Assembly (NCBI GenBank): GCA_900498135.1
Contig: LR026961.1
Location: 836,373 to 868,372 of the forward strand
From: an uncultured Desulfatiglans sp.
GTDB taxonomy: Bacteria; Desulfobacterota; DSM-4660; Desulfatiglandales; Desulfatiglandaceae
DNA: 32,000 nt
Reading direction: 5' to 3'
Of this stretch, positions 15,288 through 32,000 are shown piece by piece. The notes below the pieces were generated by a model, which saw only the letters and a program-made list of their open reading frames with translations, did not search any database and had not been told where the DNA came from. Made by a program: the position numbers and the translations under genes. Each line of letters starts with the position of its first letter. Position 1 is the stretch's first letter.

Positions 15288-15404
15288 GTGCACGCAGCCG
15301 CCGGTCGATGCTCGACGGCCGAGCCGGCCGCCTGAACTCCGGCCGGAATACGCCGCCCGTGACAGCGGGGGCAGGACAAAGCCATCATCGAAAGGAGTCA
15401 TGGG

Positions 15405-16781
15405 GTGCAGCAGAAAGGGACCATCCTGATCGTCGACGATGATACGGCCCATCGGACGATGCTCTCGACATTGAGCGAAGGATGGGGATATACCGTCGTC
15501 GAAGCCGCCGACGGCGAGGAGGCCATCGCCAAGGCCCGTGAGCAGGCCTTCGATCTGATCCTGATGGATATCCGCATGCTCAAGGTCTCGGGCCTCGAGG
15601 CCCTGGGCGCCATCAAGGCGTTCAATCCCGCCATCCCCATCATCGTCATGACGGCCTACGCATCGGTCGAAACGGCCGTGAGCGCCCTGAAGCAGGGCGC
15701 GTACGATTATCTCACGAAGCCGCTCGATTTCGACGAACTGCAGCTGACCATGGAAAGGGCGATGGAGCATCTGCGCCTGAAGGAAGAAAACAAGCGGCTG
15801 AAGGAGACATTGGGTGAAACCTTCGATGCGCGGCGGATCATCGGCTCGAGCCCCGCGATGGTCAAATTGCTCCAGACGGTTGCGAGGGTCGCGCCTTCCG
15901 AGGCGACGGTCCTGATCAGCGGGGAATCCGGCACGGGAAAAGAACTCATTGCCGCCGCCATCCATTTCAACAGCCCCCGGAAGGACGGACCCTTCGTCAA
16001 GATGAACTGCGCAGCCCTGACCGAGACCCTCCTCGAATCGGAGTTGTTCGGTCATGAAAAGGGCGCCTTCACCGGCGCTCACCGCCTCAAGGAAGGGAAG
16101 TTCCGGCAGGCGCACGGCGGAAGCCTCTTTCTCGACGAGGTCGGCGAAATGCCCCTCTCCATGCAGGCGAAGCTCCTCCGGGTGCTGCAGGAAAGGGAGC
16201 TTGTCCGTGTAGGCGGCGAACAGGTGCTGAAGGTCGACGTCCGCGTCATCGCCGCCACCAATCGGGACCTGCCCGAGTCCGTCCGGGACGGCCGCTTCAG
16301 GGAAGACCTGTACTACCGGCTGAACGTGGTCGGGCTGGAGGTCCCTCCCCTGAGGGAAAGAAGGGAGGACATTCCCTTGCTGGCGGAGCATTTCCTGAAG
16401 CAATTTGCGGAAAAGAACCGCAAGACCCTCAAGGGATTGACCCCTCAGGCGATGGACCGGCTGCTCCGCTACCCTTGGCCGGGCAATGTGCGCGAACTGA
16501 TGAACGTCATCGAACGCGCGGTGGTTCTGGCACGCAGCGAGGTTCTGGATACCGAAGACCTCCTCCTGGAACGCGGGGCCGATCGTGTGGAAAACTCAGC
16601 CGGGCCGGCGGACACCATGGAGGTGGGGCCGGCGGACATTCCGCTTGAAGAAGTCGAACGGGTGACCATCCTGAAGACCCTTGAATCGGCGGGTGGAAAC
16701 AAGAGCGAAGCGGCCCGGCGCCTTGGAATCACCCGGCGGACACTGCATCAGAAACTGAAGAAATACGGGGTTATGCCGTAA
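15405..16781 (+). CDS. Sigma54-dependent response regulator (NtrC/AtoC/ZraR family)
   Basis: 458-aa ORF with a GTG start 7 nt after AAAGGAG. Receiver domain (ILIVDDD ... LILMDIRM). AAA+ sigma54-interaction domain (GESGTGKE, GAFTGA, DEVGEM). C-terminal Fis-type HTH (AARRLGITRRTLHQKLKKYG). Confidence 0.95.
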   Translation: MQQKGTILIVDDDTAHRTMLSTLSEGWGYTVVEAADGEEAIAKAREQAFDLILMDIRMLKVSGLEALGAIKAFNPAIPIIVMTAYASVETAVSALKQGAYDYLTKPLDFDELQLTMERAMEHLRLKEENKRLKETLGETFDARRIIGSSPAMVKLLQTVARVAPSEATVLISGESGTGKELIAAAIHFNSPRKDGPFVKMNCAALTETLLESELFGHEKGAFTGAHRLKEGKFRQAHGGSLFLDEVGEMPLSMQAKLLRVLQERELVRVGGEQVLKVDVRVIAATNRDLPESVRDGRFREDLYYRLNVVGLEVPPLRERREDIPLLAEHFLKQFAEKNRKTLKGLTPQAMDRLLRYPWPGNVRELMNVIERAVVLARSEVLDTEDLLLERGADRVENSAGPADTMEVGPADIPLEEVERVTILKTLESAGGNKSEAARRLGITRRTLHQKLKKYGVMP

Positions 16782-16862: not shown

Positions 16863-18599
16863 TTGCTGAAACGCCCGAAATTGAACTCTCTCCAGAAGAA
16901 AATCGCCGTTTTTCTGCTTCTGCCGCTGACGATCGCATTGCTCGGCCTGGGGTTTTTCGGTTTCTTTTTCGCAAAGGAAGTCATGCTGAACGAGTGGCGG
17001 GAGGCGGCCATCCTCAAGCTGCAGCGGGCCGCCCACCACATCGACATGCGCCTCCAGGCCCCCATCGATTGGATGGAGATGTTTCACCGCACGGGAAGGC
17101 TCGAGGACAACGACGCTCAGCAATGGATCCTCGATGAGCTGCGGCAGATGCCGGGCGTCCTGAATGTTGCACTGACCTGGCTGGACCCCCGGCACATGTC
17201 CGTACCCGGCTTCACGGGCCACGGCGGCATGATGGACCGGCAGCCAGGAAGCGGCATGAGCATGAGGATGATGCGTTTCGAGCAGGCCAGGATAGCGGAC
17301 GTCAGCCCTCCCACTTACAATGCGCTGACCGGTGAACAATCCGTCACCCTCACCTCGCAGCTGAACGACGAGAGGGGAGAAACGCTGGGGATCTTGACGG
17401 TCGCCATCAGCTTCGAATACATCATGCAGGACATCCTCAATCTGAGCTGGTGGCAAAGCGACACAGCCTATCTCGTCGACCGGCACGGGCGCATCCTCTC
17501 ACAGACCGTCCGGGCGCCCCTGACGCGCAAGCGGCTGGGAGAAACGGGCGACCCGCTCGAACTGGAGCTGCTCCTCGATATACAGAAAAATTCTCACGGC
17601 ACCATCCTCGGCCCGGGGCACCCGCCGGAGATGGTTTGGGGATATTACCACATCGAGGAGGCCCCCTGGACCATCGTCCTGTTTGCATCGGGGAAAAGAG
17701 TGCTTGCCCCGATCCTCACCTTCAGGCTCTACTATGGCATAGCAGCCCTCCTTTCGATCCTCGTCCTCATCGGATTCATCCGCTTCATGGTCGGCCGTTC
17801 GGTCAAGAGCATCGCCGAACTCTCCCGGGCAGCCGAAGGGGTGGCCGTCGGCGATTACCGGACTCTGGACGAGGCCGGATCCGACGAGATCGGCCAACTC
17901 GTTCGGAGCTTCAACACCATGGTGGAGGGCCTCAAGGAGCGGGACCTCATCGTGGACACCTTCGGGCGTTACATGGATCCGGACATTGCCAGGCAGCTCA
18001 TGCAGCGTCCGGAATCCCTAAGGATGGGAGGAGAAAAGCGGGAGGTGGCCATCCTCATGTCCGACCTGAGGCATTTTACGCCCATCTGTGAAACGCGCCG
18101 CCCCGAGGAGATCATCCGCATCCTCAACCGGTATCTTTCGGCCGTCATCCCGATCATCCAGGAACATCACGGCATCATCGTCGATTTTTTCGGGGATGGC
18201 ATCCTCGCCTTTTTCGATCCGCTAGACGGGCCCGTCGAGCCCTCCGCGCGGCATGCCGCCGCCTGTGCGGTCGAGATGCAGGAGGCTATGACTGCTTTGA
18301 ACCGCGATGCTTCCCGCCTCGGACTGCCGGAACTCCACATGGGCATCGGCCTGCACGCCGGAGAGGTCGTCGTCGGAAACATCGGGTCCGAGGCCCGCGC
18401 CAAATACGGGATCGTCGGGGCGCCGGTGAATCTCACCCAAAGGATCCAGTCCGAGGCCCTCCCCGGGCAGGTGGTCTGCTCCGATGCGATCGGCCGGTAC
18501 ATTTTCGCGGATCACCGGCCCGTCACCATGGTCGCCGTAAAACTGAAGGGGGTCACCAATCCGGTCAACGTGAGCGTCATCCACCAAGCAACATCTTGA
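16863..18599 (+). CDS. Membrane sensor class III adenylate/guanylate cyclase (extracytoplasmic sensor domain, HAMP, cyclase)
   Basis: 578-aa ORF with a TTG start after GAGAGGA. Two TM helices flank a roughly 250-aa sensor region. HAMP-like segment (SIAELSRAAEGVAVGDYRTLDEAGSDEIGQLVRSFNTMVEGL). Class III cyclase domain (REVAILMSDLRHFTP ... FGDGILAFF ... GLHAGEVVVGNIGSEARAKYGIVGAPVNLTQRIQS). Confidence 0.85.
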   Translation: MLKRPKLNSLQKKIAVFLLLPLTIALLGLGFFGFFFAKEVMLNEWREAAILKLQRAAHHIDMRLQAPIDWMEMFHRTGRLEDNDAQQWILDELRQMPGVLNVALTWLDPRHMSVPGFTGHGGMMDRQPGSGMSMRMMRFEQARIADVSPPTYNALTGEQSVTLTSQLNDERGETLGILTVAISFEYIMQDILNLSWWQSDTAYLVDRHGRILSQTVRAPLTRKRLGETGDPLELELLLDIQKNSHGTILGPGHPPEMVWGYYHIEEAPWTIVLFASGKRVLAPILTFRLYYGIAALLSILVLIGFIRFMVGRSVKSIAELSRAAEGVAVGDYRTLDEAGSDEIGQLVRSFNTMVEGLKERDLIVDTFGRYMDPDIARQLMQRPESLRMGGEKREVAILMSDLRHFTPICETRRPEEIIRILNRYLSAVIPIIQEHHGIIVDFFGDGILAFFDPLDGPVEPSARHAAACAVEMQEAMTALNRDASRLGLPELHMGIGLHAGEVVVGNIGSEARAKYGIVGAPVNLTQRIQSEALPGQVVCSDAIGRYIFADHRPVTMVAVKLKGVTNPVNVSVIHQATS

Positions 18600-18676
18600 C
18601 ACGGGTCGCGCAAAACGCTACGCTCCCCTGGCATCTATTTCCATCCAAGGCAGGCACTGGGAACGAGGCGGACCGA

Positions 18677-21600
18677 ATGCGAAACCTCTTGAGCAAGTGG
18701 CTCAAAATCTATCCCGACGAGTTCGGTCTGTTCATCTGGTCAACCCTGCTTCTTTTTCTGATTAGAAGCGGCAACGTCCTCTTCGACAATTTCGGCGAAA
18801 CCGCCTTCCTGAAACGCTTCGGCGTCGAATACCTTCCTGTCGTCTACATGATCAATTCCATCGCCACCTTTGTCCTCATGGGCATCGTGACGGGGATTAT
18901 GGTCAAGCTGCCGGGGAGCCGCCTGCTCGCCTACATGCAGCTCTTCTGCGGGCTCAGCGTCGCAGCGCTCAGACTGGTCATCCCCCTGGGCTTCGATTAC
19001 ATCTACCCGGTCTTCTTCATCTTGAAGGCTCAGTACGAGGTCCTGCTGGGGCTGGTCTTCTGGAACCTCGCGAACGACCTCTTCAACACCCGTCAATCGA
19101 AGCGTCTCTTTCCGCTCATTACCGCGGGGGGAGTCCTCGGCGGCGTGATCGGCAGCTTCGCGACCCCTTCTCTGGCCAAGGCCATCACCATCGACAACCT
19201 TCTCTGGATCTATCTGGCCATATCGGTGCTGGGGGCCTTCATGGTGCAGCGGATGGGGGTGCGCTTCCCCTCCATCCTGTTCATCGACAGCCCCGACCAG
19301 GAAAAGGGGAAGAAAAAGAAAGGCCGCAGTTCGCTGATCGAGGAGTTCAAAAAGGTCGGTCCGATGATCAAGGAATCGAAGCTGGTCAAGATCCTCGTGG
19401 TCCTGACGCTGATGCCCAACGTCGTCATCCCGATCATCAACTACCAGTTCAACTTCGCAGCGGATCAGCAGTTCGCCACCGAAAGCGGGATGCTCCTATT
19501 CTTCGGATATTTTCGAGGGGCGATGAACGTGATCAGCCTCGTCATCCTGCTCTTCGTAGGCCGAATCTACGGCCGGTGGGGGCTGCCGGTGGCGCTCATG
19601 TTCCATCCCTTCAACTATATTCTTGCGTTCCTGGCCTTCCTCCTCCGCTTCGACATCCTATCCGCCATGTACGCGCGTATTTCCACGACCGTCATCCGCA
19701 ACACCATCAACAACCCCGGGCGCGCCGTCCTGGTCGGACTCGTGCACCCGGCCTACCGCGCCGTCATCCGGCCCTTTCTCAGGGGCACGATCGTCCGAAT
19801 CGGCACCCTGGCAGGCTCCGGCATCATCATGCTCTGCGAGGGGCTGATCCATCCCCGCTTTCTGTCGGTCATAGCCTGTGCCTTCGTAGGCGTTTGGCTG
19901 TTTGCGACCTTCGTCCTCAAGCGGGATTACCCCAAAATCCTTCTGGACCTCATTTCGCGCAACATGCTCGACCTGAAATCCATCGAAGGCAAAGAGCTGA
20001 ACCAGATCTTCACCGACCGGAAGGTCCGCACGGAACTGACCGAGGCCTGCGCCTCCAGCCGGAACGACGATTGCCTCTGGTATGCCAGGCTTTTGAAATC
20101 CCTGGACGTGAGCGGCCTCGACGACGTCATCCTCTCGGCCCTGCCCCAACAGGATGAAAAAACCCGCATCGCCCTCCTCGCCATGCTGTCGCCCGAAGCC
20201 GGCGAGAAGGCCATTCCCGTCCTCGAGTCTCTTTCCGTCGAGGCGGGCCCCGAGCTCATGGCGGCGATTCTCCAGGCATCGAACCGGCTGCCGGCCGGAC
20301 TCTCGAGGGATTTCAATCTCAAGATCATCGACGCGCGGCAGGATCCCCTCATCAAGGCATGGGCCGTCGCGGGGCTCTATCCACAGGCGCCCTCCGACTA
20401 CGCATCGATCGTGGAGGATTGGTTCGCATCCGACCATCTCGAAGGAAAGAAGGCCGCCGCCATCGCCGCCGGCGGCTCGGGAGACGGAGCCTATCTTCCC
20501 CGGCTCCAAAAGATGCTCGCCGAGGAAGACGACCCGGCCTTGCTGGTCCTGGTACTCGAGGCCATCAGGAAGCTCGCCCCGGCCGACATCAACGCGCTGG
20601 TGGAGCCCTTCCTCGGTCATCAGGATGAAAACGTAAGGATGGCCGCCCTCCGGGCCTACGTGATCGCAGACGATACCGCCTCCCGGAGGGCCATCCGCCT
20701 GCTCGACGATCCATCCGATCTCATCCATGAATACGCCGCTGAAAAACTTCAGGAGGCCCCCTATCAAAGCGTCGAACTTTTCCTGGAATCCCTGACAGCA
20801 CCCAGCCGCCGGGTGCGGGAGGGGCTCTTCCGGGTGCTCGAGACACTCAATATCAAGGACCTCGACGTCATTCGCTTCGCCCGCAGCCAACTTCAGGAAG
20901 CTTATACCTGTCTGGTCGTGAAGGACGCGCTGTTGCAGCAGCCCGAATCCGAGCAAGGGCGGATGCTCGCCGACCATCTGGAGCAGAAGAAGGACCTCCT
21001 CGTCGAAAACATCATCCGGCTCCTCGCCGCTCAGGACACATCTGGACAGATGCGTTTGATCTGGCGGGGAATCTCCTCAACGAACAAGACCCAGCGATCC
21101 AACAGCATCGAGGCCCTCGACAGCCGCATCGATGCCTCGCTGTCGAGAATCCTGATGCCCCTGCTGGAAGGCCTCTCGGTCTCAGAAGCCCTCGAGACCG
21201 GACGGAAAAACTACTCCCTGCCGCGCTTCAACCCATCGAACCCGTCGGATCTATACCGCTATCTGCTTAGTTCGGGCGATTGGGTCAACGTGCTCTTCAC
21301 ACTGAGCCTAGTCGCCGCTCGAGAGACCCCCATCGTGGAGAAAGAACGTATCCAGGAACTGACCGAAGCGGACAACCCGTTCGTGCAGCAGATGGCGCAT
21401 CATACGCTGCGCCGCCTGGAAGGCACCGGATCTGAAAGGAAGGATGACATGGAAGAGGAAATCACCATCCCTGATAAGGTGCTGCGTCTCAAGGGGATCC
21501 AGATCTTCGAAGGCCTTTCCGTCAACGAACTGGCTGCCATCGCCTCCGTCACAGAAGAAATCGTCGTCGAACCTGGCGAGATCGTCATCCGGGAAGGCGA

Positions 21601-21913
21601 ATCGGGCGACACCCTGTACCTCATCATCCAAGGATGCGTCGCGGTCCTCAAGGGATATGCCGAAAAAGAAGAAGGCAAAGAAGGGGTCGAACTCGCGCAA
21701 ATCAGCGATGGGGACTACTTTGGTGAAATGGCCCTTTTCGAGGACGCCCCACGCTCAGCCACCATTCGCACCCTGGACAAGAGCCGGCTGCTGGTCCTTC
21801 ACAAGCGTGAATTCACCGAGATCGTCCGGGAATACCCGCAGATCGCGCTGCACATCTGCAGGGCCCTGAGCCAGCGGATCAGGGAGCTGCACAGCAAGGT
21901 CAGGACAGAATAA
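18677..21913 (+). CDS. Multidomain membrane protein: TLC/ATP:ADP-antiporter-like (MFS-type) transporter domain, HEAT-like repeats, C-terminal cyclic-nucleotide-binding domain
   Basis: I chose the start at ATG 18677 (MRNLLSKWLKIYPDEF), 6 nt after GAGGCG. The track start at 18596 is a TTG overlapping the cyclase stop. The N-terminal ~450 aa are polytopic and resemble the TLC family. The middle ~450 aa are alpha-helical repeats (HEAT-like). The C-terminal CAP-type cNMP-binding domain (about 21482-21900) contains GDYFGEMALFEDAPRSATIRT. Confidence 0.8.
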   Translation: MRNLLSKWLKIYPDEFGLFIWSTLLLFLIRSGNVLFDNFGETAFLKRFGVEYLPVVYMINSIATFVLMGIVTGIMVKLPGSRLLAYMQLFCGLSVAALRLVIPLGFDYIYPVFFILKAQYEVLLGLVFWNLANDLFNTRQSKRLFPLITAGGVLGGVIGSFATPSLAKAITIDNLLWIYLAISVLGAFMVQRMGVRFPSILFIDSPDQEKGKKKKGRSSLIEEFKKVGPMIKESKLVKILVVLTLMPNVVIPIINYQFNFAADQQFATESGMLLFFGYFRGAMNVISLVILLFVGRIYGRWGLPVALMFHPFNYILAFLAFLLRFDILSAMYARISTTVIRNTINNPGRAVLVGLVHPAYRAVIRPFLRGTIVRIGTLAGSGIIMLCEGLIHPRFLSVIACAFVGVWLFATFVLKRDYPKILLDLISRNMLDLKSIEGKELNQIFTDRKVRTELTEACASSRNDDCLWYARLLKSLDVSGLDDVILSALPQQDEKTRIALLAMLSPEAGEKAIPVLESLSVEAGPELMAAILQASNRLPAGLSRDFNLKIIDARQDPLIKAWAVAGLYPQAPSDYASIVEDWFASDHLEGKKAAAIAAGGSGDGAYLPRLQKMLAEEDDPALLVLVLEAIRKLAPADINALVEPFLGHQDENVRMAALRAYVIADDTASRRAIRLLDDPSDLIHEYAAEKLQEAPYQSVELFLESLTAPSRRVREGLFRVLETLNIKDLDVIRFARSQLQEAYTCLVVKDALLQQPESEQGRMLADHLEQKKDLLVENIIRLLAAQDTSGQMRLIWRGISSTNKTQRSNSIEALDSRIDASLSRILMPLLEGLSVSEALETGRKNYSLPRFNPSNPSDLYRYLLSSGDWVNVLFTLSLVAARETPIVEKERIQELTEADNPFVQQMAHHTLRRLEGTGSERKDDMEEEITIPDKVLRLKGIQIFEGLSVNELAAIASVTEEIVVEPGEIVIREGESGDTLYLIIQGCVAVLKGYAEKEEGKEGVELAQISDGDYFGEMALFEDAPRSATIRTLDKSRLLVLHKREFTEIVREYPQIALHICRALSQRIRELHSKVRTE

Positions 21914-22040: not shown

Positions 22041-23102
22041 TCATCGGGGATTGTTTTCCCAGACCGTCGTCGAATAGTCATAGCCGAGGGTGCAGGTGCG
22101 GCAGATATCCAGGTGGCCCTCGAAAAAGCGCTCCAGCATGGTGCGCCTGGCATTGGAGTTCCAGATCTCCCGCCAACCTCTCTCCCTGAGATTCCCGAAG
22201 GCGTATTCTCCATCGTAATCGATGCAGCAGGGCACCACCGCACCGTCCGAGAGCACGAATCCCTGAAACAGCAGGCGGCAGACGGCCGTCTCCCGGTAGG
22301 TCTTATACCCCTCCTGCCGCCGCGAGTACTTTCCCTGCCCGGCGGCCGCGAACCGGCCGAAGGCTCCGGACGTTTCATTCCGGCCCCCGAAGCTCTCGAA
22401 ACTGGGCTTCTTGAACTTGATCCGATCGACCCCGAGCCCCCGAATGAACCGCTTCAGGGCCGCCTCCTTCGCTTCGTTGTATGGGAACATGACCGTCTGC
22501 ACCTGGATGAGGGGGGTGGACCGCTTCTGCCGGTTCCTTTCGCGGCGCAGGGCCTCGATGCCTCTCAGGATCTTTTCGAGATCCGCCCCGCGGCGGTAGA
22601 TCCCCAGATCGTCCTGCGTCATCCCGTCAAGGGAGATCGAAATCTTGTCGAGGCCGCTGCGGACGACCGCCTCGGCCTTCTCCTCCAGGAGCATCCCGTT
22701 GGTGGCGAAATAGGTGTAAATCCCCCTGGTTTTCAGGCTTGCCACGATGTCGAAGACGGACCCGGACAAAAGCGGTTCCCCCATCAGATGGAGGCAGGCG
22801 TAATGCATGGCAGGGTTGTCCGCGGCGATCCCTTCCACCCATTCGAGCGGCATCTCGGTATATCCCCGCCGCAGGTGGTGGGTCGAGCAGAGTGGACAAT
22901 TCAGGTTGCACCGGCTGGTGCTCTCGATCTGGAAGATGGTAGGCCGAAAGGCCATAACCAGCCTCACTTTTTCTGGCAGTGGCAGTTCTTTGAAAACGGC
23001 CTCCGCCCGGCTGTACGCCTCGTCCTGCCGGGGCCCAGCCATCGCGGCCGCAAGCCGCCCCTCGTCAGGCTGCAGCGCCTGCTGCAAAGACCCCGATCTC
23101 AT
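22041..23102 (-). CDS. Radical SAM enzyme with C-terminal SPASM/twitch-like Cys-rich domain
   Basis: Cluster motif ESTSRCNLNCPLCS. The C-terminal auxiliary-cluster pattern is C-x16-CC (CRLLFQGFVLSDGAVVPCCIDYDG..FGNL...EIWNS) plus CRTC. The start is uncertain. ATG 23102 has an AGAGGA ribosome-binding site and overlaps the upstream gene by 38 nt. The track start is 23135, and other candidates are 23042 and 22955. Confidence 0.8.
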   Translation of the reverse strand: MRSGSLQQALQPDEGRLAAAMAGPRQDEAYSRAEAVFKELPLPEKVRLVMAFRPTIFQIESTSRCNLNCPLCSTHHLRRGYTEMPLEWVEGIAADNPAMHYACLHLMGEPLLSGSVFDIVASLKTRGIYTYFATNGMLLEEKAEAVVRSGLDKISISLDGMTQDDLGIYRRGADLEKILRGIEALRRERNRQKRSTPLIQVQTVMFPYNEAKEAALKRFIRGLGVDRIKFKKPSFESFGGRNETSGAFGRFAAAGQGKYSRRQEGYKTYRETAVCRLLFQGFVLSDGAVVPCCIDYDGEYAFGNLRERGWREIWNSNARRTMLERFFEGHLDICRTCTLGYDYSTTVWENNPR

Positions 23103-25374
23103 GCCCTGTCCTCTCGTTGATATAGGTGGCGGCAAGCCGCATGTCGTTTCGCGCCGTCAAACGGAGCGCAGGCTCATTGTCCATCCGGATCGTGACATAG
23201 ATCTTCCACCCGGGAGAACGGGCCACCAACCCCTTGAGCAGCCGGTCCCCAAGCCCCATGCCGCGGTATTCGGGCCGCACCGCCGTATACCCCCTTTCGA
23301 GATAGCCGTCGAGGTTCAGCCCCGTCTTTTCTTCGATCCGGCGCCGATACCTCTCCAAAGGCCGCTTGTGCGTCATGGTGGCCACCACCCGGTCCCCTTC
23401 GACGGCGTAGCCGATCAGCCAGGCCTTTTCCAGATTCTCCCGGATCCAGCTGAGCCCCACTTCGCCCCCCAGTTCGACCAGGCGGCAAATACCATCCAGG
23501 ATGTTTTCGGGAACATCCGCCGGACATTCGAAAAAAAGCTGAATCCGCGACCCTTTGTCATATCGAGCCAGATCACCCGGCGACACCTTCCAATTCAGGA
23601 CCGCATCGAGCCCATAACGCGAGACATAGAGCATCAGGTATTCCCGAATGCGCAGATAGTACCAGAAAGGGTGACCGTACAGATCCTTCAGGCGGTAAGT
23701 CTGCGCCTCTTCGAGAAAGGTCGTGAGGGCCGCCCCGTCCATACCCTCCCGGCAGACGAAGGGGTGATCGGAGCCGAAGGGACTCGGGCTTTCGCCGATT
23801 TCGGATATGGCATAGTCCTCCGGCCGTTGCATGATGCGGGAGTACTTGAGGAGCACGAAACGAAAGAAGATCGAAGAATGGATCCTGTCAATGTTTTCCT
23901 CGAGGAAACGCAGCGTCTCGTCGGCCTCCTCACGCGTCTCCCCCGGGAAGCCGAAAATGACCGTGGCGTGGTTCCATATCCCCGCCCTGGAGGCGTCGCC
24001 AAGCACCCTCAGGGTTTCCGGCAGCCGGGTTCCCTTGTTCATGAGCTTCAAAATGCGCGGGTGCCCCGTCTCGAGCCCCCACCGCACCAGCCGGACCCCG
24101 GCCCGGGCCAGGAGATCCAGCCGATCGGCCGTAAAAGCGCCGACCGGCTTGCACCAGAGGGAGATGTCGAAGCGTAGACCGCGATCGAGGATCCCGCGGG
24201 CGACCTCCGCCAGGTAGGGGGCCGTGAGACAGTCGTCATTGACAGTGAAGCAGGGGGTTCCGTGCCGGGAGTGCAGTTCGGCCAGATGGCCGACCGCCCG
24301 TTCCGGCGGTACGGTCATAAAGCGGCGGTTGTCGTAACGCGAGCAGAAGGCGCACTTCCCCCAGTAACACCCTTCCGAGAAACGGATCGGCAGGATGGGA
24401 ACAGGCGACAGGTAGCTTCGGAGGTCGAGATCCGTGAAATCGGGTGTGGGCAGCTCCGGCAAGGGCTCATGCCCGCAGATCGGGGTCTCGATCCATTTCC
24501 CCCGACGCGAAAAGCCTAAATTGGGGGCATCATCCCAAGGCCGGCCCGATAACAGGCGATCCAGGAGGAAGGCCAGAGGCCGTTCTCCATCCTGCAGCAC
24601 CACGCTGTGCGCAAATTCAGGGAGGTAGTCCGGCTCCTTCTCGAAGGCGTCCCGAAGGCGCAGGATATGGCGGCCTCCGAGTGTAACGTGGACGTCCGGG
24701 AAACGCCGTTTGAGAAATCTGGCCAGCGTCAGACCCCCGGGGGCCTGATAGGATGTGGATATGGATATCCCCACCAGGCGAGGGGCCTCCCGCGCCACCA
24801 GGTCAGGGATGGTCCGCTCGTAGAAATCCAGGAAAGGGTTGGCACGACGGTCATCGCAGAAGCGGATCATCCCCGCGTAATCCTCGATCCCGGGATGCTG
24901 GAAGGTATTGAAGGTGAAGGAGGTCGGAAACCATGAGAGCGACGCCATCCGCAAGAGCCGGTAGAGATTGGTCTGAGCCCGGATGCAGCGCTCGGGGTCG
25001 AAAAACCCCGCCTCCTGCCTAAGATCCTCTATAAACCGGCGCACCTGAGCGGCGCGGTCCGTCCACACATCACGACGATCCCGAATATCCCGGAACAGGG
25101 CCTGCTGCGGGCCGGACATGCCTTCCGCCGGTCTTTCCAAGATCTGCGCCAGCATAGCGTCCAACCGCTCCGGCATCAGCAGGTACTCCAGAAAAAAATC
25201 GAGGCTGACATCGGTATGCCGCACGCCAAATCCGGCCTTACGCAAATAGGCCGTCAGGGCGGGGAGGGCCAGGAAAGGGGTCACAGGCGTCCAAACAGGT
25301 GGAAACATCAGGAGGATGTCGCAAACGCTTTTGATTTGCTTCAGATCACGCATTCTTTTAGAATAGCGAGCCAT
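23065..25374 (-). CDS. Cobalamin(B12)-binding-domain radical SAM enzyme fused to a C-terminal GNAT N-acetyltransferase domain
   Basis: 769-aa ORF. The N-terminus (ILLMFPPVWTPVTPFLALPALTAYLRKAGFGVRHTDVSLDFF) is typical of class B radical SAM enzymes. The radical SAM motif is GCYWGKCAFCS. The last ~150 aa are GNAT-like with motif A RPEYRGMGLGDRLLKGL. Confidence 0.8.
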   Translation of the reverse strand: MARYSKRMRDLKQIKSVCDILLMFPPVWTPVTPFLALPALTAYLRKAGFGVRHTDVSLDFFLEYLLMPERLDAMLAQILERPAEGMSGPQQALFRDIRDRRDVWTDRAAQVRRFIEDLRQEAGFFDPERCIRAQTNLYRLLRMASLSWFPTSFTFNTFQHPGIEDYAGMIRFCDDRRANPFLDFYERTIPDLVAREAPRLVGISISTSYQAPGGLTLARFLKRRFPDVHVTLGGRHILRLRDAFEKEPDYLPEFAHSVVLQDGERPLAFLLDRLLSGRPWDDAPNLGFSRRGKWIETPICGHEPLPELPTPDFTDLDLRSYLSPVPILPIRFSEGCYWGKCAFCSRYDNRRFMTVPPERAVGHLAELHSRHGTPCFTVNDDCLTAPYLAEVARGILDRGLRFDISLWCKPVGAFTADRLDLLARAGVRLVRWGLETGHPRILKLMNKGTRLPETLRVLGDASRAGIWNHATVIFGFPGETREEADETLRFLEENIDRIHSSIFFRFVLLKYSRIMQRPEDYAISEIGESPSPFGSDHPFVCREGMDGAALTTFLEEAQTYRLKDLYGHPFWYYLRIREYLMLYVSRYGLDAVLNWKVSPGDLARYDKGSRIQLFFECPADVPENILDGICRLVELGGEVGLSWIRENLEKAWLIGYAVEGDRVVATMTHKRPLERYRRRIEEKTGLNLDGYLERGYTAVRPEYRGMGLGDRLLKGLVARSPGWKIYVTIRMDNEPALRLTARNDMRLAATYINERTGHEIGVFAAGAAA

Positions 25375-25471
25375 CGCATTTAATCAAGGCTTTTTTGGGT
25401 GCATCCGAAGACGGCGATCCCTGCCCACGGCTCTTTGGGCCGCCTCGATCGACGATGGCCAAAAGGGGCGT

Positions 25472-26362
25472 ATGAACATAGGTATCCTGAGTGCCAGAGA
25501 TCGCAACTACCATCCGAACCGAAGGCTCCTCGAGGCCTCCCGTGAACGCGGACACGAAGCCCATCTCATCCATCCGAAGGACTGCCGCTCCCTCCTTGCG
25601 CGTGGAGGTATGACGATCGAAGGCCCCGGCATCAGGCCGGAGGTGCTTCTGCCCCGCATCGGGGCCACCATCAACGATTATGCCCTCGCCCTGATCAGGC
25701 ATTTTGAACTCTCGGGAACGCAACTCATCAACGGCTTTCCGGCCATCGCCCTCACTCGCGACAAATTCCTAGGGCTGCAGACCCTCGCGGCGGGCGGCAT
25801 CCCTGTGCCCCGGTCGATACTGGTCAGCAATCGCGGGAACCTCGAACGGGCGGTCGAAGACCTCGGCGGCTGTCCAGTCGTGGTCAAAACCCTCCGAAGC
25901 CGCCAGGGCGAAGGGGTCTTTCTGCTCGAACATCCTTCGGACGGCGCAGAACTCGTAGAAAGGTTCGATGCGCGAAAGCGCGGATTGCTGGTCCAGGAAT
26001 ACATTCCGCCGGCCGGCAGGATGGACGTGCGTCTCTTTGTCCTGGGAGATCAGATCCCCGCAGCCGCAGCCCTCACCCCCCAGGAGGGGGATTTCCGCGC
26101 CAACATCCATCAGAACGGCCATGCACGCATCTTTGCCCCGGAGCCCGCCCTGGTCGATCTCGCTATCAAGGCCAAAAGGGCGCTCGGGCTGAACATCGCC
26201 GGCGTGGACGTCATCATCGATCGGAACGGCGGCCCATGGGTGATCGAGGTGAACTATTCGCCGGGGTTCAAAGGGCTCGAGGCGGTTTCGGGGCTGGACA
26301 TTGCAGCTGAGATCATCCATTATGTCGAACGGGTGCATGCACGGAAGAACGGAGACCGCTGA
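25472..26362 (+). CDS. RimK-family ATP-grasp ligase (alpha-L-glutamate ligase-like)
   Basis: 296-aa ORF collinear with E. coli RimK from memory: MNIGILSARD..., PRIGATI, ARDKF, VVVKTLRSRQGEGVFL, LVQEYI, DVRLFVLGD, EGDFRANIHQNG, AGVDVI, VIEVNYSPGFKGLE. Confidence 0.9.
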   Translation: MNIGILSARDRNYHPNRRLLEASRERGHEAHLIHPKDCRSLLARGGMTIEGPGIRPEVLLPRIGATINDYALALIRHFELSGTQLINGFPAIALTRDKFLGLQTLAAGGIPVPRSILVSNRGNLERAVEDLGGCPVVVKTLRSRQGEGVFLLEHPSDGAELVERFDARKRGLLVQEYIPPAGRMDVRLFVLGDQIPAAAALTPQEGDFRANIHQNGHARIFAPEPALVDLAIKAKRALGLNIAGVDVIIDRNGGPWVIEVNYSPGFKGLEAVSGLDIAAEIIHYVERVHARKNGDR

Positions 26363-27360
26363 TGAAAATCGCCTTTCTGATGGATCGCCTGGACTCCATC
26401 GACCCCGTCAACGAGACCACCAGCCACCTCATGTACGAATGCAACGAGCGCGGCCACACGGTCTATTTCCTCGAGCCCCACGATGTCTACGTCCGGCAGA
26501 ATGCGGTCCTGGCCCGTATGCGCAATGTCACGGTCGAACCGGGTCTCTCGATCCGCCGCTACTGGAGGGCGCTCATCCGGTGCATGAAAAAGGACGAACT
26601 CATCTTCGAAAGCGTGACGGAACTCGACGCCCTCTTTCTCCGCAAGAACCCGCCCCTGGTCTACCAGACCATGGAGTTCCTGGCGCCGGTCAACAACCGG
26701 GTCTTCATGATCAACAGCACCCGCGGCCAGATCCTTGCCAACAGCAAGCTTTACACGCTGAATTTCCCGGATATCATCCCACAGACGCACATCTCCCGTG
26801 ACCCCGTCCGCCTCAAAAAGATCATCGACGACTTCGGCGGCGCCATGGTCGTCAAACCCCTGCAGCGGTTCGGCGGGGAGGGTGTCATCAAGGTCAGCGT
26901 CCGCGACCGCGAAAACCTGATCTCCCTCATCAACTACTATGTCCGGACCTATCAGGCATACCCCAACCGGGAACCGATCATGGTCCAGGAATATCTGGAT
27001 ATCGTCAAGACCGAAGGGGATGTGCGCATCCTGCTCTTGAACGGTGAAATTCTCGGGGCGATGCGCCGAAAACCCCGCCTGGGGGATTTCAGAACGAACA
27101 TTCACGCGGGGGCAAGCGCCCATAAACACGATATCACCCCGCGCGAAAGGGACATCTGTGCTACAATCAGCGAAAGGCTCAGGAGGGACGGGCTCTACTT
27201 CGTGGGGATCGACATCATCGGCGACAAGCTCATCGAGGTCAACTGTGTCAGCCCGGGTGGAATCCCGCGCATCAACCGCCTCAACAACGTCCGTCTGGAG
27301 AGGAATGTGATCGATTTTATCGAAACCGAAGTCAGCAAGATGAAACAGGACCACCCGTAG
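26362..27360 (+). CDS. Glutathione synthetase (GshB)-family ATP-grasp ligase
   Basis: 332-aa ORF collinear with E. coli GshB from memory: MKIAFLMDRLDSI..., LRKNPP, VVKPLQRFGGEGVI, GDVRILLLNGE, FRTNIHAGA, LYFVGIDIIGDKLIEVNCVSPGGI. The ATG shares one base with the RimK-like stop (TGATG at 26360-26364). Confidence 0.85.
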   Translation: MKIAFLMDRLDSIDPVNETTSHLMYECNERGHTVYFLEPHDVYVRQNAVLARMRNVTVEPGLSIRRYWRALIRCMKKDELIFESVTELDALFLRKNPPLVYQTMEFLAPVNNRVFMINSTRGQILANSKLYTLNFPDIIPQTHISRDPVRLKKIIDDFGGAMVVKPLQRFGGEGVIKVSVRDRENLISLINYYVRTYQAYPNREPIMVQEYLDIVKTEGDVRILLLNGEILGAMRRKPRLGDFRTNIHAGASAHKHDITPRERDICATISERLRRDGLYFVGIDIIGDKLIEVNCVSPGGIPRINRLNNVRLERNVIDFIETEVSKMKQDHP

Positions 27361-27439
27361 GAAACGGACAACCCATGCGGTGCAGCAGGGAAATCCGTTT
27401 ACCCGGCAAACCACTTTCGGAAGAGAAAGGACCACCGAC

Positions 27440-29167
27440 ATGAAAAACGTCCATTGTTCCAAGAACCTGACAGGTCTGGTGCTCATTCTTCTGCTGGTCG
27501 GCTTTTGCACACTCCCACCCATCTTCACCTCGCCGGCTTCCGCACGCGACATCCTGAAAATAGGACTCCTCGAGGAACCCAAGACGCTCAACATCTGGAT
27601 GGCGAGCGACACGTGGTCCAGCAAGGTGCTCTCTCAAATATATCAACCTCTATACATCCGCGAGCCGGAGAACCTGGATCTGATCCCCTGGCTTGCCGAA
27701 AGCGATCCCGTTTACAACGAGGCAGAACTCTCCTACACCGTGACCCTCAGACCGGCCAAATGGTCAGACGGCACCAAAGTCACCGCTGAGGACGTGATAT
27801 TTACGGGTGAGTTCATCCAGGAATTCAAGATCCCCCGCTATGCCTCCTATTTCAAGTTCGTCAAGAAGATAGAGGCGTTGGATCAAAGGACCGTCCGGTA
27901 TCACCTCGAGAAGCCCCAGGCCATCTTTCTCAGCCGGACCCTGACCACGCCGATCGTCCAGAAAAGGCAATGGATGCCCATCGTGAACGACATCCGGGGG
28001 AAAGACAAACCGCTGGCCGAGATTATCAATGTCAAGATCGATCAGCCGATCGGATGCGGACCTTTCGTCCTGAAGGAGTGGCAGCAGGGGGCCTATATCT
28101 TCATGGCAACCAATCCCGACTTTTTCGGCCGGAACCTCACCATTGCCGACCACAAACTCGGTCCGTACATCGACGGAATCATCTTCAAAGTTTTCGGCAC
28201 ATCGGATGCCGCGATCCTCGCGCTCAAGAAGGGCACGATAGACATGTTCTGGTGGGGGATCCAGGCGGGTTATATCGAGGACCTCAAGAGGCAGAAGACG
28301 GTGGAGATCCACACGAACGACAAAAGTGCACTCTATTACCTGGGGTTCAATGTCAGGAAGGCCCCTTTCAGCGATCCCGCCCTACGCCGGGCCATCGCTA
28401 CGCTGATCGACAAAGACTTCATCATCACACGGATCCTGCAAGGATACGCCATAGAACTGGACTCCGTCGTTCCTCCCGGCAACCGTTTCTGGCACTGCCC
28501 GAATGTCCCGTCCTACGGCAAGGGGCTGTCAAGAAATGAGCGGATCAAAGCGGCTTACGACATCCTCAAAAACGCGGGATACACATGGGACATCCCCCCG
28601 GTCGATCCGAAGGGGAAGATCAGCGCCGCCAAAGGCCTGCGCCTGCCCGAAGGCAAACCCATGGAGGGCTTCACGATCCTGACGCCTCCGGCCGACTACG
28701 ATCCGAACCGGGCGATGACCGGCATGATCGTCCAGGAGTGGCTGCGTCAGATAGGGATGCCCGCTACTTCGAGGCCTATGGCGTTCGGCGCGCTCATCGA
28801 CCAGGTCAAGAGCCGGCACGATTTCGATGCCTTCGTCCTCGGCTACGGGAAGCTTTCCCTCGACCCGGACTACATCCGGAACTTTTTCTCATCCAGCAAC
28901 GATAAGTCGAAAGGGAGCAACATGAGCGGATACCGCAACCCCGAGTTCGATCGGATCGCCGAGGAATCCGCCGCCACCATGGACGCGAAGAAGCGTCAGG
29001 ACCTCGTTTGGAAGATGCAAAGCATCATCCTGGAGGATGTCCCCTATCTCCCCATTTACAACCCGAAGGTTGTCGAGGCGGTGCGCAACGACCACTTCAA
29101 GGGATGGATCGATATGATCGAAGGCATCGGGAACCACTGGTCTTTCTGCCTCGTCGAACCCCGTTGA
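27440..29167 (+). CDS. ABC transporter substrate-binding protein, family 5 (peptide/nickel, OppA/DppA-like)
   Basis: I moved the start to ATG 27440 (MKNVHCSKNLTGLVLILLLVGF...ASA|RD signal peptide), about 9 nt after AGAGAAAGGA. Length and sequence pattern are typical of SBP family 5. Confidence 0.9.
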   Translation: MKNVHCSKNLTGLVLILLLVGFCTLPPIFTSPASARDILKIGLLEEPKTLNIWMASDTWSSKVLSQIYQPLYIREPENLDLIPWLAESDPVYNEAELSYTVTLRPAKWSDGTKVTAEDVIFTGEFIQEFKIPRYASYFKFVKKIEALDQRTVRYHLEKPQAIFLSRTLTTPIVQKRQWMPIVNDIRGKDKPLAEIINVKIDQPIGCGPFVLKEWQQGAYIFMATNPDFFGRNLTIADHKLGPYIDGIIFKVFGTSDAAILALKKGTIDMFWWGIQAGYIEDLKRQKTVEIHTNDKSALYYLGFNVRKAPFSDPALRRAIATLIDKDFIITRILQGYAIELDSVVPPGNRFWHCPNVPSYGKGLSRNERIKAAYDILKNAGYTWDIPPVDPKGKISAAKGLRLPEGKPMEGFTILTPPADYDPNRAMTGMIVQEWLRQIGMPATSRPMAFGALIDQVKSRHDFDAFVLGYGKLSLDPDYIRNFFSSSNDKSKGSNMSGYRNPEFDRIAEESAATMDAKKRQDLVWKMQSIILEDVPYLPIYNPKVVEAVRNDHFKGWIDMIEGIGNHWSFCLVEPR

Positions 29168-29281
29168 GTGCGCTTCGACCCTTTGAGTGAAGTCGATCTG
29201 TTTCAAAGTGGATGCGGCGGATTGCGCAGCCGCAGCCGGTGAAAAACCCGCGCCCTGCTGCGCAGCCGTTAGGCGAACAGC

Positions 29282-29307
29282 AAAACATCTCGGGAAACGG
29301 ATGTTTT
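29282..29307 (+). terminator. Intra-operon hairpin after the binding-protein gene (possible attenuator or mRNA-stabilising stem-loop)
   Basis: aaaacatc (29282-29289) pairs with gatgtttt (29300-29307), an 8-bp stem with a 10-nt loop. It lies in the 172-nt gap between the SBP and first permease genes. There is no extended U-tract beyond the stem. Confidence 0.3.
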
Positions 29308-29339
29308 AAGGCGAAAACCCGAGCAAATCCGGATCGAAC

Positions 29340-30317
29340 ATGGAATTGCGACGCTACGTCCTCAAGAGGCTGTTTCAGATCATCATCATCTTTTTCATCA
29401 TCCTGACGGTCCTCTTCCTGCTGTTCCGGCTGGCCCCCGGCGATCCGGTCTCCCGTATGATCGATCCAGACATGACCGCCGAGGATGCCCGGCATCTCAT
29501 GCAGCAGCTCGGGCTGGACCAACCCCTTGGAGTTCAATACCTCTACTACGTCAAAAATTTCTTTACGGGAAACTTCGGATTTTCTTTCCATTACGGGCAG
29601 CCCGTCATCCGCATCATCGCCGACAGGCTGCCCAACACCGTCCTGCTGTTCACGACTTCGATCGTCCTGGCGGCCTTCGCCGGTGTTTTTCTGGGCAAGA
29701 TCGCTTCCTGGCACAAAGGACGCAGCCTCGATACCACCATGACGCTCGGCGCCCTGGTGACCCATACCCTGTTTCTGCCCTGGCTCGCCCTGATCCTCAT
29801 CTGGGTGTTCGCCTACAAACTGGGCTGGTTCCCCATCAACGGAATGATCTCTGAGGAGATCTGGCTCGATCCCGATGCGGGTTTGTGGCTCAAAACCCTC
29901 GATGTGGCTCACCACATGGTCCTCCCTTTAGGGACGCTGTTTTTGATTCACTTCGGCAGTTATCTTCTCATCATGCGCAGCAGCATGCTCGAGACGCTGA
30001 AGGAAGACTACATCCTGACTGCGCGTGCCAAAGGACTTACGGAAAAGACGATCCGCAACCGCCATGCCGCCCCCAACGCCGCCCTGCCGGTGGTCACCAG
30101 TGTAGGCCTCAGTCTGGCGTTTTCAATCAACGGAGGAGCCTTGACGGAGACCGTCTTCACCTGGCCCGGCATCGGCCGGGAGTTGGTCTTCTCCGTCAGC
30201 CACAACGATTACCCTCTGGCTCAGGCGTCCTTCCTGCTCATCGCCACGGTCGTCCTCCTGTCCAATCTCGTGGTCGATGTGCTTTACGCCTATCTGGACC
30301 CCCGGATCCGGTACTGA
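29340..30317 (+). CDS. ABC transporter permease (DppB/OppB-like)
   Basis: 325-aa polytopic ORF with a typical N-terminus (YVLKRLFQIIIIFFIILTVLFLLFRLAPGDPV) and the binding-protein-dependent transport inner-membrane pattern. Confidence 0.9.
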   Translation: MELRRYVLKRLFQIIIIFFIILTVLFLLFRLAPGDPVSRMIDPDMTAEDARHLMQQLGLDQPLGVQYLYYVKNFFTGNFGFSFHYGQPVIRIIADRLPNTVLLFTTSIVLAAFAGVFLGKIASWHKGRSLDTTMTLGALVTHTLFLPWLALILIWVFAYKLGWFPINGMISEEIWLDPDAGLWLKTLDVAHHMVLPLGTLFLIHFGSYLLIMRSSMLETLKEDYILTARAKGLTEKTIRNRHAAPNAALPVVTSVGLSLAFSINGGALTETVFTWPGIGRELVFSVSHNDYPLAQASFLLIATVVLLSNLVVDVLYAYLDPRIRY

Positions 30318-30349: not shown

Positions 30350-31282
30350 ATGAAACGTCATCCGGATCGACCAAGAGAAACAGGGGGCATGCGCTCGGGC
30401 TGGGGCGGCCGTCTCCGTGAAAACTGGGTGATTTTCAGGCAAAACCTTCTGGGGAAGCTCGGAATGATCCTGTTGGTCTGCTTCGGGCTGATGGCGATCA
30501 CGAGCTTCATCCCGCCGCTGATCGATCCAATGTACGACCCCATGACCGGCGTCGACCCCGAAATCATCAGTTCCACCGGGCCGAGCGCACGGCATTGGCT
30601 GGGGACCGATTTCATGGGGAGGGACATCTTGAGCCAGCTTTTGGCCGGTGCAAGGGTGGCCTTCATGGTCGGGGTGTCCGCCGCCTTCATGAGCATCTTT
30701 CTCGGCACCGCCATCGGGATGGTCGCAGGGTATGCAGGCCGGTTCATCGACACCCTTCTGATGCGGGCAGCCGACATCATCATGGTCATGCCGACCCTCC
30801 TGGTGGTGTTGATCCTTTCCTCCCTTTTCGGGCAGCTGAATATCTGGACCATCGTCCTGATCATCGCCCTGTTCCGCTGGCCGGGTGTGTCGCGTGTCAT
30901 CAGGGCCCAGACCCTTTCCTTGAAGAATCGACCCTTCATCGAGGCCGCCCGTGTCGCAGGCGCATCGCACCTGAGGATCGTCTTCCGCCACATCATGCCC
31001 AATGTCCTGCCGCTTTCCTTCCTTTACATGACCTTCAGGGTGACCTCGGCCATCATCATCGAAGCCGCGCTCGCCTTTCTCGGGTTTGGAGACCCGGGGA
31101 CCGTCAGCTGGGGGATGATGCTCCAGTGGGTATGGAAGACCGGGCATATGTTCAAGGCCCCTTATTGGCTCTTGCCACCGGGCCTGTGCATCTCCCTGAT
31201 CACCCTGTCATTCTACATGCTGGGTCGTGCGATGGACGAAGTCCTCGACCCGAGGCTCAGAAAGGAGGGACAGGCCGAGTAA
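30350..31282 (+). CDS. ABC transporter permease (DppC/OppC-like)
   Basis: I set the start at ATG 30350 (MKRHPDRP...), after AAGGATGG. The longer track ORF from 29885 overlaps the previous permease. EAA-loop motif IEAARVAGASHLRIVFRHIMPNVLP. Confidence 0.9.
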   Translation: MKRHPDRPRETGGMRSGWGGRLRENWVIFRQNLLGKLGMILLVCFGLMAITSFIPPLIDPMYDPMTGVDPEIISSTGPSARHWLGTDFMGRDILSQLLAGARVAFMVGVSAAFMSIFLGTAIGMVAGYAGRFIDTLLMRAADIIMVMPTLLVVLILSSLFGQLNIWTIVLIIALFRWPGVSRVIRAQTLSLKNRPFIEAARVAGASHLRIVFRHIMPNVLPLSFLYMTFRVTSAIIIEAALAFLGFGDPGTVSWGMMLQWVWKTGHMFKAPYWLLPPGLCISLITLSFYMLGRAMDEVLDPRLRKEGQAE

Positions 31283-31283
31283 G

Positions 31284-32000
31284 ATGCCACTCCTCGAGGT
31301 CGAAAATCTCAGCATCGGCTATCATACCCGCAAAGGCTTCCGCAGGGCGGTCGAGAAGGTTTCCTTCTCCCTGGATGCCGGCCGGTCCCTCGGATTCGTC
31401 GGGGAATCGGGCTGTGGTAAAACCACCCTCGGCATGGGGCTCATGCGGCTCCTGCCGCCTAATGCCGTGATCACCGAGGGCCGTGTGACGTTCGATGGCA
31501 CAGACCTCCTCGATCTGCTCGAAGACGAAATGCGCCAAATCCGCTGGAACAAGATCTCCATGATCTTCCAGGCCGCGATGAATGCCCTCAACCCGGTTCA
31601 CCGGGTAGCCAACCAGATCGCTGAGGCCATTATGGCCCACTCCGCAGGTATGCATAAGGCGGAAGCCAACCGGAAGGTCGAGGCGTTATTCCAGTTGGTC
31701 GGCATTCCGAAAAACCGGATGCGCGACTACCCCCACCAGTACAGCGGGGGAATGAAACAGCGGGCGATCATCGCCATGGCGCTGGCCTGCAGGCCCAAAC
31801 TGATCATCGCCGACGAGCCTACCACCGCCTTGGATGTCATCGTACAGGACCAGATCCTCGAAGAGACCCGCAACCTGCAGAAGGAATTCGGCGTCGCCAT
31901 CATCTTCATCTCCCACGACATCGCCATCGTGGCGGATGTGTGCCACGACATCGGGATCATGTACGCCGGGCAGCTCGTGGAATACGGGCCAAGAACCGAG
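31284..32000 (+). CDS. ABC transporter ATP-binding protein (DppD/OppD-like), 3'-truncated by window end
   Basis: My own translation from ATG 31284: MPLLEVENLSIGYHTRKG.... Walker A GESGCGKTT, signature YSGGMKQR, Walker B LIIADEPTTALD. The frame stays open to the last base of the window. Confidence 0.9.
   Translation, partial: MPLLEVENLSIGYHTRKGFRRAVEKVSFSLDAGRSLGFVGESGCGKTTLGMGLMRLLPPNAVITEGRVTFDGTDLLDLLEDEMRQIRWNKISMIFQAAMNALNPVHRVANQIAEAIMAHSAGMHKAEANRKVEALFQLVGIPKNRMRDYPHQYSGGMKQRAIIAMALACRPKLIIADEPTTALDVIVQDQILEETRNLQKEFGVAIIFISHDIAIVADVCHDIGIMYAGQLVEYGPRTE

Follow-up and report, generated by a model that had tools for sequence, protein, structure and literature searches.

Ligases of the RimK and GshB families activate a terminal carboxylate as an acyl phosphate, which is then attacked by an amino acid. 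The closest described systems of this kind are the glutathione synthetase GshB of Escherichia coli (EC 6.3.2.3; structures 1GSA, 1GSH and 2GLT) and the ribosomal protein S6 ligase RimK (E. coli 4IWX and 5ZCT; Pseudomonas 7QYR and 7QYS; RimABK system). A stretch of 32,000 nucleotides from an uncultured Desulfatiglans sp. (contig LR026961.1, positions 836,373 to 868,372), referred to here as the window, encodes one homologue of each side by side. These are a RimK-family alpha-L-glutamate-ligase-like ATP-grasp enzyme (RimKL, 296 aa) and an ATP-grasp ligase from a distinct, highly conserved branch of the GshB family (GshBL, 332 aa). Both belong to a conserved operon which, as we hold with moderate confidence, lets ATP-grasp enzymes build a small glutamate-type peptide step by step and also provides for its trimming and uptake, the peptide not being glutathione and S6 not being the main target. 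The pathway is real, widespread, mis-annotated and testable.

Described GshB- and RimK-type systems

GshBL is like E. coli GshB in its two-domain architecture, its full-length alignment, its ATP-grasp core and its RKxPP motif. The chemistry is probably alike as well, in that an N-acylated amino acid would be activated at its C-terminal carboxylate as an acyl phosphate before another amino acid is added. In contrast, the identity is only 26%, the scores stay below the curated cut-offs, the protein falls outside the canonical clade and has its own signatures and indels, and its operon encodes an importer and several ligases. Furthermore, a gamma-Glu-Cys ligase is missing from the source genome and from most genomes that carry GshBL. 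RimKL shares its domains and 38% identity with RimK and probably adds alpha-linked L-glutamate, but it scores below the S6-ligase equivalog and is linked to GshBL, a GNAT acetyltransferase and an importer instead of rimA or rimB.

A precedent for GshB/RimK homologues that glutamylate small-molecule carboxylates rather than proteins is given by MptN and CofF, which reportedly add alpha-glutamate to tetrahydromethanopterin and F420 (work of Li, Xu, Graham and White in PNAS, 2003). Against the MptN model, RimKL (P0001) reaches 121 bits and GshBL (P0002) 76 bits; the equivalog cut-offs, 350 and 300, are far higher. The operon studied here differs from these systems by its importer and amidohydrolase, and no methanopterin or F420 context was seen around it.

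In mammals, NAT8L together with RIMKLA or RIMKLB leads to N-acetylaspartylglutamate (NAAG) and beta-citrylglutamate, while bacterial Ngg and AsnO produce the osmolyte NAGGN. A GNAT is likewise linked to a RimK-like ligase in the present cluster, and the Desulfosarcina-type layout described below has an operon in which a GNAT gene precedes RimKL. However, the match of RimKL to the Ngg model TIGR03103 is weak (40 bits against a cut-off of 569). The cluster also lacks an AsnO-type amidotransferase and adds two more ligases, a B12 radical SAM enzyme, an N-formylglutamate amidohydrolase-type enzyme (FGase) and the importer. Opine-metallophore loci of the cntKLM-cntABCDF type join biosynthesis genes to an importer of the Opp/Nik family. 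The present cluster is similarly co-operonic with a family-5 binding-protein ABC importer, but its biosynthetic enzymes are entirely different and it encodes no exporter.

Iyer et al. are said to have surveyed ATP-grasp amidoligases by comparative genomics in 2009. Such approaches have yielded catalogues of broadly similar ligase and hydrolase neighbourhoods, and the enzymes belong to known superfamilies. Full-text literature searches turned up no paper on this cluster and none on sulfate reducers that have a GshB-like enzyme but no GshA. Across many genomes and metagenome bins, public annotation names the pair "glutathione synthase" and "S6--glutamate ligase". These labels wrongly imply glutathione metabolism in strict anaerobes that lack every other glutathione gene for which the search was informative.

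GshBL as a distinct branch of the GshB family

The GshBL protein contains the domains GSH-S_N (PF02951, 65.4 bits) and GSH-S_ATP (PF02955, 175.2 bits). It falls under every curated GshB cut-off, namely NF003573 (267.2 vs 272 bits), TIGR01380 (249.4 vs 299.05) and PRK12458 (276.3 vs 408). In BLASTP searches of the E. coli K-12 proteins, GshBL aligned over its full length with GshB (26% identity, E 7e-37) and RimKL with RimK (E 5e-62, also full length), which bears out the alignments that an original prediction had drawn from the sequence alone. E. coli GshB is also the only sequence match of GshBL among solved structures. The genome holds no other strong member of the GshB family.

In a maximum-likelihood tree, the canonical GshB of Desulfobacterota and E. 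coli GshB formed a 100/100 clade with a branch length of 1.6, which excluded all 23 GshBL rows. The tree was rooted on RimK, and this root leaves open whether the GshBL rows form one clade. Terminal branches are three to four times shorter for GshBL than for RimKL. Across species, GshBL is 72-80% identical, compared with 40-57% for its partners, and thus ranks among the most conserved proteins of the cluster.

GshBL and canonical GshB have 53 columns in common, including the RKxPP motif. The ATP-grasp core residues are kept, as are the equivalents of K125, K160, R210, R225, R233, N235, E281 and N283. Compared with canonical GshB, GshBL consistently carries NSK for NEK, GDVR for GDKR and SPGG for SPT, in addition to a four-residue deletion after RKxPP. 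The motif of the large loop, G-D-F-R-T-N, resembles that of RimK (GDFRSN) and not that of GshB (E-T/H-R-G-N). These signature positions are reported as conservation differences only. GshBL is a distinct, strongly constrained GshB branch. Its high conservation points to a strongly constrained and probably important metabolite in environmentally abundant sulfate reducers and aromatic-hydrocarbon degraders.

Glutathione genes and co-occurrence across the phylum

The source genome consists of a single contig of 4.8 Mb and is 98% complete. Its dsrA reaches 574 bits against a cut-off of 393, as expected of an anaerobe of the sulfite/sulfate-reducer type, and its closest relatives are Desulfatiglandales; the strict anaerobe guessed earlier fits both. 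No match to GshA (PF04262) or GCS2 (PF04107) was obtained in this genome, so the gshA partner noted as missing from the window was not found elsewhere in the genome either. GGT, GST_C and GST_N_3 gave no match in the source genome either. PF08886 and PF03074 were equally silent, but they were also silent in control genomes and are hence uninformative.

In a sample of 401 genomes of the phylum, GshB homologues form two score classes with a gap between them. The high class comprises the source genome and 23 others with a homologue of at least 56% identity and more than 410 bits. One genome (G225) holds only a fragment, with 62% identity over residues 218-329, and was counted as a carrier, which gives 24 carriers including the source genome. 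The low class comprises 26 genomes in which the only GshB homologue has at most 47% identity and less than 235 bits. GshA occurs in none of the 49 genomes with GshB homologues. For GCS2, 2 of the 23 high-identity genomes gave a strong match and a third a weak one, vs 22 of the 26 low-identity genomes, which have canonical-type GshB only.

Three of the four GCS2-less exceptions in the low class are genomes of one genus (g22) with 61-67% completeness. Of the 24 GshBL genomes, 16 hold a RimKL orthologue of at least 41% identity, and in each of these it shares a contig with GshBL and lies within 17 kb of it. Outside the GshBL carriers, such orthologues occur only in the three genomes of g22. In one of them (G121), RimKL adjoins a divergent GshB-like gene (G121:C16:9996-11679, L044; 41% identical, its alignment containing one in-frame TAA). 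Of the other two, one has RimKL and the GshB-like gene on separate contigs and the other (G008) has no GshB-like match. The genus is more plausibly a second type, linked to RimKL and devoid of GCS2, than a holder of canonical GshB, and its gene pair may represent a second variant of the two ligases, of older origin. Canonical GshB clearly travels with GCS2, and the GshBL branch clearly travels with RimKL and the importer.

These patterns bear on the classical thiol pathway, in which GshBL would be a true synthetase of glutathione or a close analogue, with gamma-Glu-Cys either imported or made by a ligase not recognised as such, for instance AG3, the third ATP-grasp enzyme of the operon. GshBL retains the full GshB domain architecture, the RKxPP motif and the equivalents of R210, R225, R233, E281 and N283, and it misses the NF003573 cut-off by only 5 bits. 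Two carriers have GCS2 and no GshB homologue other than GshBL, and the binding protein of the importer shows a weak GsiB-like similarity (87 bits). This pathway is nevertheless very unlikely: the genome lacks GshA, GCS2, GGT and GST, at most 3 of the 23 carriers have GCS2, and the branch stands apart with altered signatures in the loop and pocket regions. To our knowledge, no ATP-grasp enzyme makes gamma-Glu-Cys, which also counts against it. The placement outside classical glutathione metabolism, as originally proposed, is thus upheld by the missing genes and by a separate branch that is anti-correlated with GCS2.

Operon layout and conservation of the cluster

The coordinates of the operon and its neighbours are collected in the table below. 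Both ligase genes and the one-base overlap between them were reproduced exactly as first described: the stop codon TGA (26360-26362) and the start codon ATG (26362-26364) share base 26362, and a GGAG lies 8-11 nt 5' of this ATG. The pair opens a series of nine tightly packed co-directional genes with start/stop overlaps, which continues past the end of the window. The pair is followed by the binding protein, two permeases, two ATPases with oligo_HPY tails, AG3 and the FGase-family amidohydrolase. At the distal end, successive genes are first separated by 4 nt and then overlap by 19 nt and by 4 nt.

Table 1. Features of the ligase operon and its surroundings. Positions are those of the window unless a locus is named.
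Feature	Position	Strand	Basis
RimK-family alpha-L-glutamate-ligase-like ATP-grasp enzyme (RimKL, 296 aa)	25472..26362	+	Pfam, TIGR00768, BLASTP, structure matches
TGATG stop/start overlap (translational coupling)	26360..26364	+	Read from sequence
GshB-family ATP-grasp ligase, distinct conserved branch (GshBL, 332 aa)	26362..27360	+	Domains, tree, sub-cut-off GshB models
Family-5 (Opp/Dpp/Nik-type) periplasmic binding protein	27440..29167	+	SBP_bac_5, 231.7 bits
ABC permease (OppB/DppB/NikB type)	29340..30317	+	BPD_transp_1_N and BPD_transp_1; 66-83% identical in related loci
ABC permease (OppC/DppC type)	30350..31282	+	BPD_transp_1; likely start ATG 30350
First ABC ATPase (OppD type)	31284..32000, runs off window	+	ABC_tran and oligo_HPY
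Second ABC ATPase	L015 10618-11658 (past window end)		ABC_tran and oligo_HPY
AG3, orphan ATP-grasp ligase (485 aa)	L015 11640-13097		PF02655 only, 29.6 bits
FGase-family amidohydrolase	L015 13094-13876		PF05013, 161.6 bits
Divergent intergenic region (97 bp), presumed shared control region	25375..25471		Between minus-strand gene start and RimKL start
B12-binding radical SAM enzyme fused to GNAT acetyltransferase	23065..25374	-	Pfam Radical_SAM, Acetyltransf_1, weak B12-binding; divergent from operon
Radical SAM/SPASM enzyme, occasional neighbour	22041..23135	-	Pfam Radical_SAM and SPASM
TLC(NTT)-HEAT-cNMP-binding membrane protein	18596..21913	+	Frequent cluster neighbour

Synteny was compared in 80 species-representative loci in which GshBL is 72-80% identical. 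The cluster recurs in Desulfatiglandales and Desulfobacterales, and its cultured carriers are delta proteobacterium NaphS2 and Desulfosarcina variabilis Montpellier, in which the product can be sought directly. Three metagenome contigs with close GshBL homologues have an identical gene order that includes AG3 and FGase. In 65 of 68 loci, the next gene after GshBL is that of the binding protein. RimKL lies directly upstream of GshBL on the same strand in 46 of 74 loci and anywhere in the locus in 48 of 54, while AG3 is present in 29 of 44 and FGase in 28 of 44. A radical SAM and/or GNAT homologue stands beside RimKL in 50 of the 80 loci and is co-directional in some. Gene content, conservation and linkage are direct observations, as are the absence of glutathione genes and the family placement described above.

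A second layout, found for example in Desulfosarcina variabilis, places GNAT and then RimKL on one strand, divergent from GshBL, binding protein, permeases and ATPases. In one family, FGase directly follows GshBL, and the string of RimKL and importer genes lies a few kb off or is absent. A GshBL-type gene is directly adjacent to FGase in five loci (L048, L051 and L053-L055), two of which (L048 and L051) have no importer nearby.

In most related loci, tblastn alignments place a gap of 3-33 nt between RimKL and GshBL, so the one-base overlap is not universal. In some lineages RimKL stands with GNAT on the opposite strand, and GshBL stands with the importer or FGase; strict stoichiometric coupling is therefore not general. 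The proposal that both ligases are co-expressed in fixed proportion may hold here, where the overlap is real, but it does not extend to all relatives; the adjacency as such is conserved. The wider claim that the ligases are tied to each other and to a peptide-type importer is supported by conserved synteny and by genome-level co-occurrence. As to the parts of the system, the pair and the importer had been recognised at the outset, while AG3 and FGase beyond the window end and the GNAT/B12 radical-SAM partner upstream had been overlooked.

A scan for promoters gave nothing above chance, including in the presumed control region between the divergent genes, and terminator-like hits marked no clear operon boundary apart from one hairpin after FGase. 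In the otherwise tight operon, 172 untranslated nt (29168-29339) separate the binding-protein gene from the first permease and hold no conserved ORF. This gap could be an mRNA-processing or attenuation site that raises the output of binding protein.

The importer, AG3 and the FGase-type amidohydrolase

The oligopeptide-type binding protein and permeases, which had been named in the original prediction, were confirmed and complemented by an Opp/Dpp-type ATPase. For the binding protein, the likely start (ATG 27440) is preceded by the ribosome-binding site GAAAGGA; the start of the longest ORF (27380-29167) is probably wrong. The closest solved relative is AppA of B. subtilis (1xoc), an oligopeptide binder. 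The permeases score best against nickel/oligopeptide permease models. A 465-aa ORF that would extend the second permease from GTG 29885 is probably misstarted and overlaps the first permease by 430 nt.

AG3 has 109 homologues in the database, all of them unnamed, with 17 invariant residues. At 30-50% identity, it is far less conserved than GshBL. In another locus (L010) the gene lies at 14743-16200. No sequence relative of AG3 was found in the PDB. Its AlphaFold model is confident (pLDDT 90.5), and in Foldseek it matched only generic ATP-grasp enzymes with three domains, namely biotin carboxylase, PurK, PurD and PurT, with a TM of about 0.55. The FGase weakly matches the one solved N-formylglutamate amidohydrolase. 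Neither a DUF1704 peptidase nor an amidotransferase is present among the operon genes. Identifying the product would assign functions to the new GshB branch, to the orphan ATP-grasp family and to the FGase branch together.

With an importer in the operon, salvage or remodelling has to be considered. An imported peptide-like compound, such as a gamma-glutamyl peptide, a murein-type peptide or a glutamylated cofactor fragment, would be deblocked by FGase and rebuilt by the ligases. Binding-protein-dependent ABC systems import, and their operon partners usually act on the imported substrate. The near-constant place of the binding protein after GshBL, its kinship with the oligopeptide binder AppA and the lack of an exporter agree with such a role. 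On the other hand, three ATP-consuming ligases and a GNAT/radical-SAM modifier exceed what known salvage routes use, lineages that keep only GshBL and FGase have no importer nearby, and no family match points to a candidate substrate. Salvage as the main purpose is therefore judged rather unlikely.

RimKL and ribosomal protein S6

The domains of RimKL are Rimk_N (PF18030, 56.6 bits) and RimK (PF08443, 142.6 bits). The protein passes the RimK-family cut-off of TIGR00768 (198.4 vs 143.4 bits) and remains below that of the S6-ligase equivalog NF007764 (191.8 vs 331). Among solved structures, its best matches are the Pseudomonas and E. coli RimK entries, followed by LysX-type enzymes. No other gene of the genome matches the RimK family strongly. 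A weaker relative, a RimK/MptN-like ATP-grasp ORF of 328 aa (G000:C1:3908452-3909438; L006 1033-2019), scores 52 bits with TIGR00768 and overlaps the end of a TRZ/ATZ-family deaminase gene.

In E. coli, RimK requires a C-terminal -EE on S6. The original prediction had drawn attention to this terminus, and the S6 of the source genome indeed has an acidic end (...GKGEE). The picture differs in the relatives: S6 ends in RD, ES (four times), GE, IR, EA, ES and NE in the 10 other genomes with a cluster-linked RimKL, and -EE occurs in none of them. The missing conservation of -EE in carriers and the genome-level linkage of RimKL speak against a conserved role of S6 as the target, and glutamylation of S6 only is, judged from these sequences, unlikely. 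S6 proteins of the phylum have long acidic C-terminal extensions of variable sequence and with a diverse last residue; one of them (G306) carries a run of about ten aspartates.

RimKL could still be an ordinary S6 poly-glutamylase whose place beside GshBL reflects incidental operon packing. Its identity to E. coli RimK, the S6 ligases among its best structure matches, the -EE of the source genome and the lack of another strong RimK-family gene would all suit this role. However, the equivalog score is far too low, and the S6 tails of the other linked genomes have S, A, R, D or a lone E as their last residue. Moreover, close RimKL orthologues are almost confined to GshBL genomes, where they always lie near GshBL, and no context of the rimA/rimB or ybjN type is present. 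We consider this reading of RimKL highly improbable.

Proposed pathway

Which substrates the enzymes use, in which order they act and whether the product serves as an osmolyte, a metal chelator or a thiol are matters of inference. As family chemistry suggests, the ligases would extend a small acyl-amino acid or peptide stepwise. RimKL most likely adds alpha-L-glutamate to the free carboxylate of a small, possibly N-acetylated acceptor. GshBL would take an N-acylated amino acid or dipeptide, activate its C-terminal carboxylate and attach another amino acid, and AG3 may supply a third ligation. The FGase-type hydrolase is predicted to cleave a bond of the N-acyl-glutamate type, for trimming, turnover or reversal. 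The GNAT/B12 radical-SAM partner would modify a building block, and the binding-protein-dependent transporter is expected to take up the compound, or its precursor, from the periplasm.

Several findings weigh against the assembly, trimming and uptake of a glutamate-type peptide by this operon. An importer next to ligases would also be expected if a compound from outside were salvaged, and no exporter is encoded in the cluster. Two genomes of one family (G381 and G333, f102) carry GCS2 and have GshBL as their sole GshB homologue, which leaves room for a glutathione-synthetase activity of the clade. No RimKL was seen in 8 of the 24 GshBL genomes, and some lineages retain only GshBL and FGase. 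The S6 end of the source genome is suited to an E. coli-type RimK, to which RimKL is 38% identical, so S6 may be glutamylated in this organism. In addition, the compared genomes are related, so the counts are not independent and overstate independence.

A more specific version of the proposed pathway can be offered tentatively. RimKL, GshBL and AG3, together with the GNAT/B12 radical-SAM modifier, might build a low-molecular-weight peptide typical of sulfate-reducing Desulfobacterota. This could be a glutathione-like thiol made without GshA, or an N-acetylated (and methylated) glutamyl osmolyte or chelator. FGase would then trim it and the Opp-type importer recapture it, possibly under cyclic-nucleotide control exerted by the nearby TLC-HEAT-cNMP protein. 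The original prediction had the RimK-type enzyme make an intermediate that the GshB-type enzyme extends to a glutathione-like tripeptide or a poly-Glu compound. Of this, the non-glutathione, linked, peptide-type system is supported, while the order of the two steps and the product do not follow from the data.

Upstream neighbours

The SPASM gene rarely accompanies the B12-binding radical SAM/GNAT fusion gene; the related loci with both are L070, L075 and L089. The presence of radical SAM enzymes raises the alternative that RimKL and GshBL tail the C-terminus of a peptide of the ribosomally synthesised and post-translationally modified type (RiPP) or of a LysW-like carrier protein, which would also be modified by radical SAM chemistry. 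Protein C-termini are the sites modified by RimK and LysX, the radical SAM enzymes next to the operon match RiPP-maturase models weakly (TIGR03975, 116 bits; SPASM), and RimKL (P0001) matches an ATP-grasp RiPP-maturase model at 42 bits. All these RiPP model scores are, however, far under their cut-offs, and the SPASM gene is only an occasional neighbour. Among 12 small ORFs tested in the operon gaps and flanks, none was a conserved candidate for a precursor or carrier peptide; conservation was seen only in pieces of the adjacent cNMP-domain gene. Moreover, the transporter works as an importer and not as a leader-cleaving exporter. Tailing of a ribosomal product is accordingly quite unlikely.

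The TLC-HEAT-cNMP gene has a homologue within 10 kb of GshBL in 24 of the 41 species-representative loci with a full upstream flank. In L010, it adjoins GNAT and RimKL. A sensor cyclase homologue (window 16863-18599) lies within 10 kb of GshBL in 14 of these 41 loci. Based on the linkage of both genes, the ligase cluster may be under cyclic-nucleotide control.

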